Below, in pieces: positions 10,151 through 48,179 of a stretch of DNA of 49,122 nt (the stretch's first letter is position 1; the number at the start of each line of letters is the position of its first letter). The DNA lies in the NCBI GenBank assembly GCA_023246095.1, contig JAHFJA010000006.1, positions 1-49,122 of the forward strand. Reading direction: 5' to 3'. The DNA is from a bacterium (GTDB lineage Bacteria; Patescibacteriota; Patescibacteriia; JACQRZ01). Both the position numbers and the translations under genes were made by a program. The notes beneath the pieces are model-generated. The model ran no database searches and had not been told where the DNA came from. It was given only the letters and a program-made list of their open reading frames with translations.

Positions 10151-10223
10151 GCTGACGTAGCTCAGTTGGTAGAGCACGTCCTTGGTAAGGACGAGGTCTC
10201 GGGTTCAAGCCCCGACGTCAGCT
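10151..10223 (+). tRNA. tRNA-Thr(GGT)
   Basis: Acceptor stem GCTGACG/CGTCAGC, anticodon arm CGTCC-TTGGTAA-GGACG, T loop TTCAAGC. CCA not encoded. Confidence 0.96.
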
Positions 10224-10288: not shown

Positions 10289-11119
10289 ATGGATGAACTT
10301 AACAATCAACCTGCGAGTGTGCCTAGTGCGTCGAGTGTTTCCAGTGCACCGACAAATCAACCAATGAATAAATTTTCTCCAAAAGCAAGTTTTTTCATGG
10401 GGTTGGGAGCGGGCTTTTTCGTAATTTGTACCATTGGTTTCTTTGTTCTTCTTGGTGTGTTTTTGACCGGGAACAATAAACCATCTTCAGCGCAAGCAGT
10501 GGTAACTCCTCCAGCAACTGCACCCGTTGCCCCTTCAGCACAGGCGCCTGCTGATGCGCCTGCCGCACCTATCTCGGTTAAAGGGTATCAAAAAGATGAT
10601 CACGTCTATGGCGATGTAAACGCGCCTATTACGTTAGTTGTTTTCTCTGATACTGAATGTCCATTTTGCAAACGATTTCATCCAACCATGAAGCAGGTAG
10701 TTGATAACTATAAAGGAAAAGTAAATTTGGTATACCGCCATTTTCCGCTCGCACAGCTTCATAGCAAGGCTCCAAAAGAAGCGGAAGCAACTGAGTGTGC
10801 AGCAGAGTTGGGGGGCAACGCAGGTTTTTGGAAATATCTTGATCGATTGATGGAAATTACTCCATCGAATGATGGACTTGACCCAGCAAAGCTTCCTGAG
10901 ATTGCAAAAGAGGTAGGTCTTGATCAGAAAAAATTTGAAGACTGCTATAAGTCCGGTAAATACGCAGCCAAGGTAAGTGCACAAGAAAATGAAGGGCTCG
11001 CTGCAGGTGCTCAAGGAACCCCTTATGGAATTATCCTTGCCGGAGATCAAAAGATCCCCGTTCCTGGAGCTGTACCATTTGAACAGCTGAAAGCAACGAT
11101 TGATCCATTGATTAAGTAA
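10289..11119 (+). CDS. DsbA/BdbD-family thiol-disulfide oxidoreductase, membrane-anchored
   Basis: FSDTECPFCKRFH active site, YRHFPL, GTP cis-Pro motif, N-terminal TM. Confidence 0.92.
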   Translation: MDELNNQPASVPSASSVSSAPTNQPMNKFSPKASFFMGLGAGFFVICTIGFFVLLGVFLTGNNKPSSAQAVVTPPATAPVAPSAQAPADAPAAPISVKGYQKDDHVYGDVNAPITLVVFSDTECPFCKRFHPTMKQVVDNYKGKVNLVYRHFPLAQLHSKAPKEAEATECAAELGGNAGFWKYLDRLMEITPSNDGLDPAKLPEIAKEVGLDQKKFEDCYKSGKYAAKVSAQENEGLAAGAQGTPYGIILAGDQKIPVPGAVPFEQLKATIDPLIK

Positions 11120-11166: not shown

Positions 11167-11245
11167 ACATATATTAAATTACGTATTATTTCGTTCAAAA
11201 CGAAGGCGACATTACAGAGGTACTCGATTGGTGTGTAATAATGAT

Positions 11246-11943
11246 ATGGAAGCTAACCAACAAAATCATACTGGTGAAATTTGTTTTTTGTATCAGAGGG
11301 ATTTTTTGAGCGCAAGTGAGATTGCCGAGAAATTATCTTTGTCAATTGATGCGGTGTATTATTGTTTGAGAAAAAATAAGATACCACGACGGACAACAAC
11401 AGAACAGAATATAATGAGATTCGAAAAGACACCATCTACCTTCCTATTAATGAGCATCTAAGCGATATTGATAGAGGGTTGTTAATTGCAGGTATTATTA
11501 TGTATTGGTGTGAGGGATCCAAGAGAGGAGATGGAAAGACGGTTGACTTCGCAAACAGCGACCCGACTCTAATTATATTGTTTCTTAAGTTTTTACGATC
11601 ATTGCTCCATGTACAAGAGAAGAAACTACGATGCTATCTGTATTGTTTTGCAAATCAAGATACTGACAACCTTATTGATTATTGGTCAAGCTTAATTGAA
11701 ATCAGGAAAGATCAATTTACCAAGCCGTATGTTCGAGGTGTCTATAATCCAAGTAAAGAGGGAAGAATGCCCTATGGTTTACTACATATAAGATATGCTG
11801 ACAAGAAACTCTTGTCTTTTATCAAAAATTACATTAATATACTCCCATGTGAGTTAATAAGAAATATGGGCGGTTACCGAAGTGGTCAACCGGGGCAGAC
11901 TGTCAGTAAAGGCAGCTTTATTGAGCAATCAATATCGAATTAA
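11246..11943 (+). pseudogene. Frameshifted HTH + LAGLIDADG-like endonuclease gene overlapping tRNA-Tyr
   Basis: 11246-11461 encodes an HTH (LSASEIAEKLSLSIDAVYYCLRK). A second frame, open from 11380, encodes AGIIMYWCEGSK...VDFANSDPTLIILFLKFLR. One extra base near 11441-11446 would join them (...TPSTF-x-INEHLSDIDRGLLIAG). Could be an assembly error. Confidence 0.6.
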
Positions 11944-12192
11944 TTGGGTGAATTCGGGGAAATCTTCATCTCAATCTTTGGGAAAAGACAATCCCGAGCC
12001 AAGCTAGGAAGGACATAGGTTTCCTAGACGGTGTAGAGACTAGTGAGTGAGTTCCAACAATACTCTCACAAACAGCGCCCAACCCCGCTTCAAATAGCGG
12101 GTGATGATATAGTCCGTGCTCCTAGAAATAGGGGAATTACATGAAATCTGCTGGCATCGCCTTCGAAGGTTCGAATCCTTCACCGCCCACCA
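11868..12192 (+). tRNA. tRNA-Tyr(GTA) split by a group I intron; exons 11868-11903 and 12144-12192
   Basis: Joining the exons gives acceptor stem GGGCGGT/ACCGCCC plus ACCA, anticodon arm GCAGA-CTGT|AAA-TCTGC, a long variable arm and T arm GAAGG-TTCGAAT-CCTTC. Confidence 0.95.
11904..12143 (+). ncRNA. Group I intron (240 nt, no ORF, IA-like)
   Basis: P1 CUGU|C pairs with GGCAG, with U.G at the splice site. P3 UUGGGUG/CGCCCAA, P4 UUCGGG/CCCGAG, P7 GACUA/UAGUC, an extra hairpin between P7 and P3', P8 CCCGCU/AGCGGG, P9 GAAA tetraloop, terminal G at 12143. Confidence 0.93.
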
Positions 12193-12234: not shown

Positions 12235-12306
12235 GCCACTTTAGCTCAGTGGTAGAGCAACACTTTTGTAAAGTGAAGGTCCTGGGTTCGAATCCCAGAA
12301 GTGGCT
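12235..12306 (+). tRNA. tRNA-Thr(TGT)
   Basis: Acceptor stem GCCACTT/AAGTGGC, loop TTTGTAA, T arm CTGGG-TTCGAAT-CCCAG. CCA not encoded. Confidence 0.95.
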
Positions 12307-12603: not shown

Positions 12604-13416
12604 CTAAAGGGGGCTTCTTATGTTTTTTAGTATAGGGTTGGTTACTTTTGTGTATAGTTGGGTTGTTCTGATATTGGCGTGCCCCAGAAGCTCTTGTACG
12701 TATCGTACATCGACACCATTTTCCAAGAGGTGAGTAGCAAAGCTATGGCGCAAAGAATGAAATGTTGCTTCTTTTTGAATATTGGCTTTTTTCAGTGCAT
12801 GTTCAAATACTTTTTGCGCGGTTCTTTCGGTGAGTCGACCGCCACATTCGCTTGAAAATACATACTCGTCGAGCTGTTTATGCGAAATCTGATCAATTAT
12901 GACGGGGATTAATTTCTCAGGAAATACGGTAATGCGATCTTTATTGCCTTTTGCACCTTTAACGTGAATTGTCAGCTCGGAAAGATTGATATCCTTTACC
13001 TTCATCGCTGTTACTTCGCTAACGCGCAAACCTCCGGCGTAGGCAAGCGCAATCATTGTTTTGTGTTTTGTGTTAGGGATGACTCGTAGAATGGATTGAA
13101 TTTCATCGCGAGATAAGAAGATAGGGAGTTTACTGGGTGTCTTGGCAAACCGAATATCAAGCTTACTATTAAACTTGAGCACATTCCGACAGAAAAAATT
13201 TATCGCTTGAAGCTTTTGATTAACGCTTTGCGAGGCCATTCCTTGGTCTATTTTGGATAGTAAGTATTGCTTGATGAAGTCGATATCAACAGAATCGAGG
13301 TTACTTTGTTTGGAAGTTAAATATTCAGCCACACAGGCGGAATAGCTTTTGATTGTTTTGGGACTGTAATTACGCAGTCTTAGCTCATTTTCGAGCTTTG
13401 ATAAATAGACATTCAT
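12604..13416 (-). CDS. Tyrosine recombinase (IntI/XerD-like, SAM-like N-terminus, no IntI insertion), 270 aa
   Basis: LRLRNYSPKTIKSY N-terminus. Catalytic residues intact: GLRVSE, KGNKDR, HSLRHSFATHLLE, LLGH, TTQLY. Ends SPL like IntI proteins. Confidence 0.93.
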   Translation of the reverse strand: MNVYLSKLENELRLRNYSPKTIKSYSACVAEYLTSKQSNLDSVDIDFIKQYLLSKIDQGMASQSVNQKLQAINFFCRNVLKFNSKLDIRFAKTPSKLPIFLSRDEIQSILRVIPNTKHKTMIALAYAGGLRVSEVTAMKVKDINLSELTIHVKGAKGNKDRITVFPEKLIPVIIDQISHKQLDEYVFSSECGGRLTERTAQKVFEHALKKANIQKEATFHSLRHSFATHLLENGVDVRYVQELLGHANIRTTQLYTKVTNPILKNIRSPL

Positions 13417-13450
13417 GTATTTATGTATTACTCTTAACCTAAGAGAAATT

Positions 13451-13520
13451 ATACGAAATATTCGGGTAGTATACAATATCTCGTATGCTATATGTAAACA
13501 CTTCGGATATGGAAGAGTTA
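13451..13520. other. Candidate attI-like primary site
   Basis: ACTTCGGATATGGAAGAGTTA (13500-13520) matches only the right half of the downstream sites. It is preceded by hairpin ATACGAAATATT/AATATCTCGTAT. Confidence 0.45.
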
Positions 13521-13565
13521 TATGAAATGCCAAAAGGAAATAAGGTATTTGGCACATCATCTAAC
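13517..13565. repeat. Empty cassette: GTTA...TAAC inverted arms with a 13-nt loop
   Basis: GTTATATGAAATGCCAAA / TTTGGCACATCATCTAAC, 15 of 18 pairs. Confidence 0.7.
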
Positions 13566-47624: not shown

Positions 47625-48179
47625 ATACATTTACATTACGAGGTAAACCTATAAGCCGAATTCTGTCATACCCCCAAAGGGGCGGGGTGACCATCTCTCT
47701 TGCGATACTGTTGCCAGTACCGTCATGCGAGTGTTTATACTCTTGCACCTGGTAGGTGTTTGCCAAGCTGTTGTATCACTACAACACTGGTGCGCTCTTA
47801 CCTCGCTTACGCAAGTCAGCCATTCAAAAGGCTTCCGCACCTTTTCATCCTTACCTGTGCCCCGAAAGGCGTAGGCGGTATTTTATCAAAACATTTCTGA
47901 TTCGACCCCTCTTTTCGGGAGGGCTTTTCTGTTGCTCCGGTAGTTTTGAGGCCACCGAAACCAGTCTGAGACTGATACTATCCCGTGACTTGGTCATAGT
48001 ATCAAACGATCGAGTTGGGGTTTAATCCCCTTCTCTATCATAAAAGATTCTATGATTGCTTCAGGCCGTCGTTAACGGCTACCTCTTCCTTGGTTATACA
48101 CCAAGGGGTGTTCGGACTTTCCTCTATGACACTTGCGCGCCACAGCGATCACCCAGCTTACCTCGTAATGTCAATGTAT
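47625..48179 (-). ncRNA. rnpB: RNase P RNA, enlarged
   Basis: Minus strand contains GAGGAAAGUCCGAAC, GCAACAGAAAA, GGUAAGAGCGCACC and ACAGAAUUCGGCUUAU. P1 helix is extended to ~25 bp. Confidence 0.96.

Follow-up and report, generated by a model that had tools for sequence, protein, structure and literature searches.

The classical anticodon-loop introns of bacterial tRNA genes belong to subgroup IC3 of the group I introns, and they are known from tRNA-Leu(UAA) of cyanobacteria and plastids, tRNA-fMet, tRNA-Ile(CAU) of Azoarcus and tRNA-Arg(CCU) of Agrobacterium. They are small ribozymes without an open reading frame (ORF) in the anticodon loop, their exons form the anticodon stem, and they share a short P1 with a U.G pair, GNRA tetraloops on P2 and P9, a compact P3-P9 core and a terminal G. 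Williams (2020, bioRxiv) mapped 5,292 bacterial tRNA genes that are split by introns. They fall into 21 host/site types (4 classical and 17 new), and their frequency in metagenomic assemblies of unnamed phyla (0.49 per genome) was second to that in Cyanobacteria. In the literature, we found no named description of group I introns in tRNA-Tyr, tRNA-Asn or tRNA-Phe of bacteria or of the Candidate Phyla Radiation (CPR), and Williams (2020) was the sole relevant work. In this study, we analysed a 49,122-nt stretch of DNA (contig JAHFJA010000006.1 of assembly GCA_023246095.1, hereafter the window) from a small-genome groundwater bacterium of the CPR/Patescibacteria type. A first-pass annotation had proposed that its tRNA-Tyr gene is interrupted inside the anticodon by a group I intron. 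Our results support this proposal, and we put the probability at about 0.88 that 11904-12143 is a group I intron, functional and ORF-less, that separates U35 from A36 in tRNA-Tyr(GUA).

The window intron resembles the classical introns in all of the features listed above, with GCAA as the tetraloop of P2 and GAAA as that of P9. It differs from them in a conserved extra hairpin between P7 and the 3' strand of P3 (P3'), which classical IC3 tRNA introns, to our knowledge, do not have. It also differs in its site, which is 35/36 in the window, whereas the names used by Williams (2020) correspond to 34/35 for Leu, 33/34 for fMet and 36/37 for both Ile2 and Arg. The first-pass annotation had named Leu, fMet, Ile and Arg as the classical hosts, in agreement with the text of that paper (Leu.3Ug, fMet.2Ug, Ile2.5Ug and Arg.5Ug). 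In the same scheme, the window gene would be called Tyr.4Ug (Tyr host with its intron behind loop base 4, -1 base U, last intron base G; CUGU/...g/AAA). We could not confirm Tyr.4Ug among the 21 types; 'Tyr' and '4Ug' do not occur in the text of the paper. The term 'group I intron' as used in the available part of another report (PMC5733544) refers to insertions of 22-49 nt in cyanobacterial tRNAs and has no bearing on the window intron.

The genome that carries the window (G000) is a draft of 985,568 bases in 40 contigs with 94.8% completeness. Its small size, together with the names attached to the homologues of the upstream gene described below, is the basis for calling the organism CPR/Patescibacteria-type. 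We searched a family set of 16 genomes (G000-G015), in which G001 and G002 are congeners of G000, by BLAST with the 325-nt split gene. Coordinates in the window refer to the + strand unless stated otherwise. Exon 1 (11868-11903, 36 nt) contains the acceptor 5' strand, the D arm, the 5' strand of the anticodon stem (11894-11898) and the loop bases C32, U33, G34 and U35. Exon 2 (12144-12192, 49 nt) begins with A36, A37 and A38 and continues with the 3' strand of the stem (12147-12151), a long variable arm, the T arm, the acceptor 3' strand, A73 and CCA (12190-12192). The intron between them (11904-12143) is 240 nt long, matches RF00028 and has no ORF of its own. It separates the second anticodon base, U35 (11903), from the third, A36 (12144), in the sequence ACTGT/AAATCT; base -1 of the 5' splice site is U (11903) and the last intron base is G (12143). 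When the two exons were joined, ARAGORN recognized the 85-nt product as a class II tRNA-Tyr(gta), in which the variable arm is long, base 73 is A and the CCA is encoded. In the spliced tRNA, 11894-11898 pairs with 12147-12151 as the anticodon stem, with the intron inside the anticodon loop.

The intronless tRNA-Tyr gene of the congener G002 was identical to exon 1 at 36/36 positions (100%) and 96% identical to exon 2 over 49 nt, and its two halves abut directly, reading ...GCAGACTGT/AAATCTGC... across the junction. The read-out of this gene, ...GCAGACTGTAAATCTGC..., equals the predicted ligation product, and the variable arm alone differs. Since the exons abut exactly there in the intronless congener gene, the junction between U35 and A36 is fixed. 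Seven other family genomes (G003, G004, G006, G008, G009, G011 and G015) also have an intronless tRNA-Tyr(GTA) in the same Thr(GGU)-Tyr-Thr(UGU) cluster. The earlier proposal that cutting out 11904-12143 restores a tRNA-Tyr(GUA) with CCA is thus borne out by the ARAGORN call for the joined sequence and by the G002 allele. The first-pass annotation had also warned that standard annotators could overlook the gene. Default ARAGORN detected three further tRNAs in the window and missed the split tRNA-Tyr, as did the Rfam tRNA model, and tRNAscan-SE 2.0 is, by its own statement in the available part of its description, not designed for group I introns. With introns allowed, ARAGORN detected 11868-12192, cut it one base leftward and labelled it 'tRNA-Ser (gga) i(36,240)'. 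Without introns, ARAGORN found 34 tRNAs in G000, including a separate Ser(gga). A check for a second tRNA-Tyr, as had been suggested, found none in the 985-kb draft by ARAGORN, and BLAST of the 325-nt gene matched one place only.

The covariance model RF00028 (Intron_gpI) matched 11893-12135 with 68.2 bits (gathering score 50 bits; E 2.7e-15 for the whole window) over model positions 1-253, which is its full length. This check had been asked for, and the match was the single one in the 985,568-base genome. P1 is formed by 11900-11904 with 11911-11915, in which 11903/11912 is the U.G pair, and P2 by 11921-11924 with 11929-11932 around the GCAA loop. We read P3 (11944-11950 with 12076-12082), P4 (11954-11959 with 11992-11997), P5 (11963-11966 with 11985-11988), P6 (11998-12000 with 12030-12032), P6a (12004-12010 with 12021-12027), P8 (12084-12089 with 12096-12101) and the terminal G (omega, 12143) from the sequence. 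P7 consists of 12036 and 12038-12042 paired with 12110-12115, with A12037 bulged, and P9 (12119-12124 with 12129-12134) is a 6-bp hairpin with the GAAA loop. In the extra, 'P7.1-like' hairpin (12043-12069), 12043-12047 pairs with 12065-12069 to give a stem of 5 bp, which is closed by a 17-nt loop. The hairpin follows the 5' strand of P7, precedes the 3' strand of P3 and is an insertion relative to the RF00028 consensus. Introns of subgroup IA have P7.1 and P7.2 helices between P7 and P3', and those of subgroup IC3 are not known to have extra helices there. The window intron has one hairpin in this place, not two, and the term 'IA-type' used in the first-pass annotation describes the hairpin position alone.

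We then compared the two Tyr introns of the genus with 10 related tRNA-Phe introns in one alignment of 12 rows. Standard pairs filled 90.3% of 701 cells, compared with 33-46% when the 3' partners were slid by 1-3 columns; the structure was derived from the window sequence, which biases the paired cells against the slid controls and leaves the compensatory counts unaffected. Compensatory changes on both sides were found in 33 of the 59 pairs. Of 500 shuffles, none matched the observed values for four of the five measures and one did for the fifth (further pair types). Counting changes on one side as well as on both, 4/7 pairs had changed in P3, 3/6 in P4, 3/4 in P5, 5/5 in P6a and 5/6 in P8. 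In the extra hairpin, 4/5 pairs changed on both sides with 100% of the cells paired, and the 17-nt loop was nearly invariant in the Tyr introns of the genus and the Phe introns. The pair U11903.G11912 was U.G in 12/12 introns, all of which also end in G, and 4/5 P1 pairs changed on both sides together with the host exon. P7 was invariant in 12/12 introns, which neither supports nor opposes the helix; P7, the J8/7 region and the U.G pair of the window intron were identical to those of its 11 relatives. P9 was 31% paired, owing to an alignment fault that left the Tyr and Phe rows out of register there, and it was not counted as evidence. A terminal G ends all 40 introns of the census described below, in which the junctions were partly chosen by that rule. 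These results indicate that the elements listed in the first-pass annotation (P1 with U.G, P3, P4, P7, a hairpin after P7, P8, P9 and the terminal G) are all present, with the pair counts of the alignment behind the helices other than P7 and P9.

Splicing of this intron would follow the established chemistry of group I introns. The gene would be transcribed together with its neighbours, and P1 would form between the guide GGCAG (11911-11915) on one side and the exon-1 end CUGU plus the intron's first base on the other, U35 being the U of the U.G wobble. Free guanosine bound in P7 would attack after U35; G12143 would then take the guanosine site, and the freed 3'-OH of U35 would attack after G12143. 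Exon ligation would give the normal anticodon loop CUGUAAA, held by the anticodon stem of both exons, and RNase P and end trimming would complete the tRNA, whose CCA is encoded. Function is supported by the apparently sole tRNA-Tyr, the strictly conserved exons and the retention of every core pairing. The orthologous split gene of G001 was 84% identical over 325 nt, with the same intron length of 240 nt and the same U/G ends, and this conservation suggests that the split gene has been kept by selection. Because no other tRNA-Tyr was found in the draft genome, the intron very probably splices in vivo. We infer from the sequence that it splices, and that it may do so without help.

Several observations count against this account of the locus. 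On reading the sequence, we saw no convincing P10 between the bases 5' of the guide and exon 2, and exon alignment may rest on the anticodon stem instead. The metatranscriptome of the source sample had next to none of the words of this stretch, and no RNA run was among the sequence runs listed as containing it. The draft (40 contigs, 94.8%) is without several tRNAs and the 16S rRNA, so that a second tRNA-Tyr is possible in unassembled DNA. In addition, the link of the LAGLIDADG-like gene upstream of tRNA-Tyr, described below, to the window intron is weak. At the DNA level, a 351-nt contig of the source sample covers 11874-12192 with the intron, and a soil contig with 93% likeness covers 11767-12115. 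Contigs of other organisms from sequence runs had an intronless tRNA-Tyr matching exon 2 from exactly 12144. None of these contigs, which came from four runs, bears on splicing in the G000 organism.

The distribution of tRNA introns was examined in the family and in a wider set of relatives. Among the 16 family genomes, tRNA-Tyr was found in 11, split in three (G000, G001 and G007) and intact in eight; the gene was not found in G005, G010, G012, G013 and G014. The split gene of G007 was more distant from the window gene than that of G001. The wider set consisted of 101 related genomes scanned with RF00028, of which 51 matched, all of about 0.7-1.5 Mb, and 40 tRNA introns were resolved. Hosts were called by ARAGORN and the U/G junction rule, and RF00028 matches outside resolved tRNA genes were not included in the count. 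The commonest host was Asn(GUU) at 35/36 (18 introns), followed by Phe(GAA) at 33/34 (10), Tyr(GUA) at 35/36 (4; G000, G001, G007 and G083), Thr(GGU) at 36/37 (3, one detected by ARAGORN only), Met-type (CAU) at 33/34 (3) and Leu(UAA) at 34/35 (2). At locus L002, ARAGORN called Leu(taa) with a 539-nt intron, and the shift routine gave no U/G junction. ARAGORN with introns labelled most of the split tRNA-Asn(GUU) genes (L005, L009, L013 and 15 further loci) as Thr(tgt). Their introns start with GT and finish with GTG, which leaves two junctions that fit the U/G rule; this ambiguity was settled by comparing the tRNA bodies with the tRNAs of G000, which showed the Asn identity of the Thr(tgt)-labelled genes.

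The set of split tRNA genes varied among close relatives: introns were present in Tyr, Asn and Phe genes of G001, in those for Asn and Phe only of G002, and in the Tyr gene of G000, whose Asn gene is intronless. In both congeners, the intron-split tRNA-Phe lies beside tRNA-Ile(GAU), and for this reason the tRNA-Phe/Ile(GAU) region of G000 is probably unassembled. This patchy presence and absence is the pattern of mobile or frequently lost introns. A further 33 intron-split tRNA-Tyr genes were found among 80 loci of the upstream gene family described below, one of them identical in sequence to a census intron. Twenty of these 33 loci were scanned, and nine reached the RF00028 cut-off. Since compact Tyr introns of about 190 nt score near this threshold (47 bits in G083), Rfam-based counts understate Tyr introns. 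The first-pass annotation had stated that 35/36 introns in Patescibacteria occur mainly in Asn and Asp tRNAs and that Tyr may be a rarer host. The Asn part agrees with the census, in which Asn hosts 18 of 40 introns; no case was found for Asp, nor any paper making this statement. Tyr was the rarer host in relative terms (4/40), but the 33 further split genes show that it is not a rare one. We also observed compact introns of 178-191 nt after U36 of tRNA-Thr(GGU) in G007, G011 and G083 (L036 1789-2039, L042 2444-2710 and L076 480-740, all on the - strand). They form a separate long-branch clade (100/100) and fall below the Rfam cut-off, with 25.9 bits for the G007 copy and no RF00028 match in G011; in G007 and G083 they adjoin the split tRNA-Tyr.

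A broken gene with a helix-turn-helix (HTH) part and a LAGLIDADG-like part lies directly before tRNA-Tyr. The HTH part is at 11258-11449 (positions 5-68 of the A2 profile), in an ORF at 11228-11461 of 77 aa with weak HTH matches in Pfam/NCBIfam. The C-terminal LAGLIDADG-like part is at 11401-11943 in another frame, with profile positions 51-198 at 11401-11844 and an ORF at 11479-11943 of 154 aa. The gene is broken, because the two parts lie in different frames. The second frame has no stop before the tRNA and continues through exon 1 and 40 nt of the intron, and exon 1 in translation gives the tail of the ORF, ...GGYRSGQPGQTV. We found 94 homologues, mostly of about 202 aa, and the names, where given, included Moranbacteria, Parcubacteria group and Omnitrophota. 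Intact members consist of an HTH and a C-terminal domain with an L.aG..LYW.EG helix. This is a LAGLIDADG-type helix with a conserved acidic end, LIAGIIMYWCEGS in the window, and the family alignment shows no variation at Y88, E91 and G92, where helix 75-91 ends.

The fold of the C-terminal domain was examined by sequence and structure searches. In Pfam/NCBIfam, only HTH families matched, at the N-terminus, and no family covered the C-terminal domain. No LAGLIDADG family matched the window ORF, and none was among the matches listed for 30 homologues (25 of 50 families, E <= 1). A PDB sequence profile search returned HTH proteins only, and Foldseek of a homologue model against the PDB returned nothing at E <= 0.001. 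The AlphaFold model of an intact homologue had a predicted local distance difference test score (pLDDT) of 92.3. VIA-align of its residues 65-202 gave the intein endonuclease domain 7qsu as the top match (Z 8.9, root-mean-square deviation 2.7, 89 residues), followed by I-DmoI (Z 7.3), E-DreI (6.8), WhiA (6.7 and 6.0), I-Tsp061I (5.8), I-Vdi141I (5.5) and 2cw8 (5.4). As these Z values are middling, a LAGLIDADG fold of the modelled domain is probable, not certain.

The genomic setting of this family was then examined in the best 80 of 156 confirmed loci, nearly all of them titled as metagenome-assembled genomes of the Patescibacteria group or Omnitrophota. The gene was followed by tRNA-Tyr in 78 loci, intron-split in 33 and intronless in 45, and by tRNA-Thr(GGU) in two. 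In 76 of the 80 loci, the stop codon fell between 78 nt inside and 25 nt before the first tRNA base, and no stop was found inside the matched stretch in any of the 80. The intron followed CTGT in 33/33 split Tyr genes. On a protein tree of 81 tips, intron presence took five changes, compared with a shuffled mean of 26, and so few changes indicate that particular gene lineages travel, or are inherited, together with an intron. The window copy forms a long branch, and the lineages around it adjoin intronless genes. In G001, the intron is present and the gene is absent; relative to G001, the window cassette stands in place of about 57 nt, and its end falls no more than two bases from the first base of the tRNA. 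Close subfamily members (>200 bits) were present in four of the 101 relatives (G000, G083, G018 and G034), with a Tyr intron in G000 and G083, and RF00028 had no match on the gene-bearing contigs of G018 and G034. These results show that the cassette is often, not necessarily, accompanied by an intron. To judge from its sequence and placement, the gene is most likely a decaying stand-alone homing cassette that inserts at the tRNA-Tyr 5' end, and it would have arrived independently of the window intron.

Reverse splicing, the homing cycle and collaborative homing have been described (PMC3984707, available part), and T4 SegB is a stand-alone homing endonuclease in a tRNA cluster (PMC2330249, available part). 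The window locus resembles phage collaborative homing and SegB in that a gene for a probable nuclease fold lies outside the intron against a conserved tRNA gene and is patchy among close relatives. The decay of the upstream gene is as predicted by the homing-cycle model. The gene differs from the phage systems in being LAGLIDADG-like with an N-terminal HTH, not GIY-YIG or HNH, and in being chromosomal in CPR. Furthermore, more than half of the examined loci of the upstream gene are without an intron, and its product is a putative nuclease.

Three other readings of the locus were weighed against functional splicing of a tRNA-Tyr. The ARAGORN label would make the gene a tRNA-Ser in which the intron is shifted in the 5' direction by one base (GGA) or by two (UGA). 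ARAGORN also labelled the orthologues in G001 and G007 'Ser (tga)', and in these two the alternative cut also gives U at -1 and G at the end. In the window, however, both are given solely by the Tyr junction, and the gga cut puts G at -1 and U last. In P1, U33 of the alternative site pairs with A, and the wobble pair is that of U35. The discriminator base is A73, which fits bacterial tRNA-Tyr and not tRNA-Ser (G73), and G000 has its separate tRNA-Ser(gga), while Tyr is otherwise absent. The intronless alleles in eight family genomes read GTA and rule out the Ser identity, to which we give practically no credence. It is also very improbable that the intron is dead and the locus a tRNA pseudogene, with a working tRNA-Tyr in the unassembled 5%. 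The assembly is incomplete, since the 16S rRNA and tRNA-Phe, Ile(GAU), Pro, Cys and Trp were not found on any contig of the G000 draft. Nevertheless, the core pairings of the window copy are all intact, P7, J8/7 and the U.G pair are as in the 11 relatives, and the exons are 100% and 96% identical to the intact gene of the congener. The split orthologue of G001 keeps the same architecture with no second Tyr gene found in that genome, and in relatives tRNA-Tyr was seen only at the conserved cluster position.

In the third reading, the intron would be inefficient alone and need a protein helper, such as the product of the neighbouring gene. Some LAGLIDADG proteins are group I intron maturases, a LAGLIDADG-like gene does lie directly upstream, and 33 of the 80 loci of its family precede an intron-split tRNA-Tyr. 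The available part of PMC3984707 also names maturase activity as a possible later role of homing endonucleases. However, the window copy of the gene is split over two frames and lies on a long branch, G001 and G007 have the Tyr intron without the upstream gene, and 45 of the 80 loci pair the gene with an intronless tRNA-Tyr. The window intron is, moreover, of another lineage than the introns that usually accompany the gene. A gene that is frameshifted in the window and absent from G001 cannot be required for splicing, and we consider the need for a helper very unlikely. Functional splicing of a tRNA-Tyr(GUA) intron at 35/36 accordingly remains our preferred reading of the locus.

The lineage of the window intron was examined by blastn and by maximum likelihood trees of the 33 ORF-less introns among the 40, with seven introns longer than 340 nt left out. 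In blastn all-vs-all, the Tyr introns of G000 and G001 were closest to each other (79.8% over 242 nt), and the next closest were tRNA-Phe introns (84.6% over 143 nt between Tyr of G001 and Phe of G002; 74.7% over 182 nt between Tyr of G000 and Phe of G010). The Tyr introns of the genus had no blastn match to those of G007 and G083, which matched Asn introns. A single clade of the four Tyr introns was rejected by the approximately unbiased (AU) test (p 0.0005). Against the 33 other tRNA-Tyr introns, the window intron had no blastn match (E <= 1e-5), whereas the G083 intron matched 25. The window intron is for this reason not of the common tRNA-Tyr lineage, and it differs from the common CPR tRNA-Tyr intron in the lineage of its core.

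Different parts of the window intron showed different affinities. The core (intron nt 41-179, from P3 to P3' with the extra hairpin) shared 87-92% identity, in the 119 columns kept, with the Phe introns of this genus, and the likeness of the P3-P3' core to these 33/34 introns, with the extra hairpin and its loop, was 82-92%. In a core-only tree, the Tyr introns of the genus stood beside the Phe introns of G001 and G002. In contrast to this core, P1, P2, P8 and P9 are re-tailored in the window intron relative to the Phe and Asn introns, which have other host genes. P1, P9 and the last bases resemble those of the Asn and Tyr 35/36 introns of the class, and an ends-only tree (nt 1-40 and 180-240) grouped the ends with all 35/36 introns with support of 99/100. 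With less confidence, we take the intron to belong to the radiation of tRNA introns in its bacterial class. With similar reserve, we take its core and the tRNA-Phe (33/34) introns of the genus to have a recent common ancestor, whereas its ends are like those of other 35/36 introns. Its probable origin is thus a transfer, or a recombination, between tRNA genes. Several points speak against such a mixed origin. A grouping of the core with the Asn and other Tyr introns was not rejected (AU p 0.075), nor was a grouping of the ends with Phe (AU p 0.23). P1, whose sequence has to fit the CUGU target, is part of the ends, and their likeness may be convergence. Finally, the whole-length tree placed the Tyr pair of the genus as sister to the Asn/Tyr group (88/98), not inside Phe. 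Because the AU tests are indecisive and the guide must match its target, recombination or a host switch is suggested rather than shown.

The upstream gene and the intron can be combined in one picture of the locus. In it, a host-switched mosaic, with the core of a Phe 33/34 intron and the guide and 3' end of a 35/36 intron, would lie behind a decaying member of an undescribed HTH + LAGLIDADG-like family, so that two independent selfish elements would share one essential single-copy gene. We regard this picture as tentative and, on present data, rather doubtful. If the mosaic is true, tRNA introns of reduced genomes would reach new tRNA genes and anticodon positions through recombination of resident introns, and tRNA-Tyr would have been invaded at least three separate times within one bacterial class.

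The neighbouring genes place the split gene in a conserved cluster. tRNA-Thr(GGU) (10151-10223, +) is the first and tRNA-Thr(UGU) (12235-12306, +) the last gene of the Thr(GGU)-Tyr-Thr(UGU) cluster, whose order is conserved in relatives, and rpmG (L33, 12370-12525) follows tRNA-Thr(UGU). A gene for a membrane-anchored DsbA/thioredoxin-like protein with a CPFC motif (10289-11119, +) lies between tRNA-Thr(GGU) and tRNA-Tyr, and it does so in 3/3 genomes of the genus. In other genera of the family, the Thr(GGU)-Tyr spacing was 3-142 nt where both genes were on one fetched locus, except in G011 (856 nt). Directly after rpmG and the tRNA cluster is a tyrosine recombinase gene (Phage_integrase, E 1e-43; 12604-13560, -), and in G001 rpmG is followed instead by a 228-aa gene that, on sequence reading, resembles undecaprenyl-diphosphate synthase. 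The recombinase site may be the edge of an inserted element. We also found an RNase P RNA (RF00010, 140 bits) at 47636-48164 (-). It is 529 nt long against a consensus of 367 nt, unusually large for such a small genome, with expansions of 167 nt against 15 model positions and of 38 nt against four.

Introns of this kind in tRNA genes are common among related bacteria and have probably been catalogued already. Particular to the window copy are the Phe-intron-like core with its conserved extra hairpin and the decaying LAGLIDADG-like cassette at the 5' end of the tRNA. Because default tRNA finders miss the split gene, this genome and many of its relatives would be reported without a tRNA-Tyr, and ARAGORN with introns mislabels split genes, Tyr as Ser and Asn as Thr. 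The compact ribozyme, with its covarying extra hairpin and nearly invariant 17-nt loop, would be a simple substrate for studies of splicing and folding. The upstream gene family, which adjoins tRNA-Tyr in 78 of the 80 loci and is amenable to bench testing, may represent a new group of homing endonucleases of the stand-alone kind, whose target would be a defined one. Since close relatives differ in their split tRNA genes, these genomes are a natural system for the gain, loss and host switching of group I introns. In this organism, an essential and apparently single-copy tRNA in a genome of about 1 Mb would depend on a ribozyme for its maturation.

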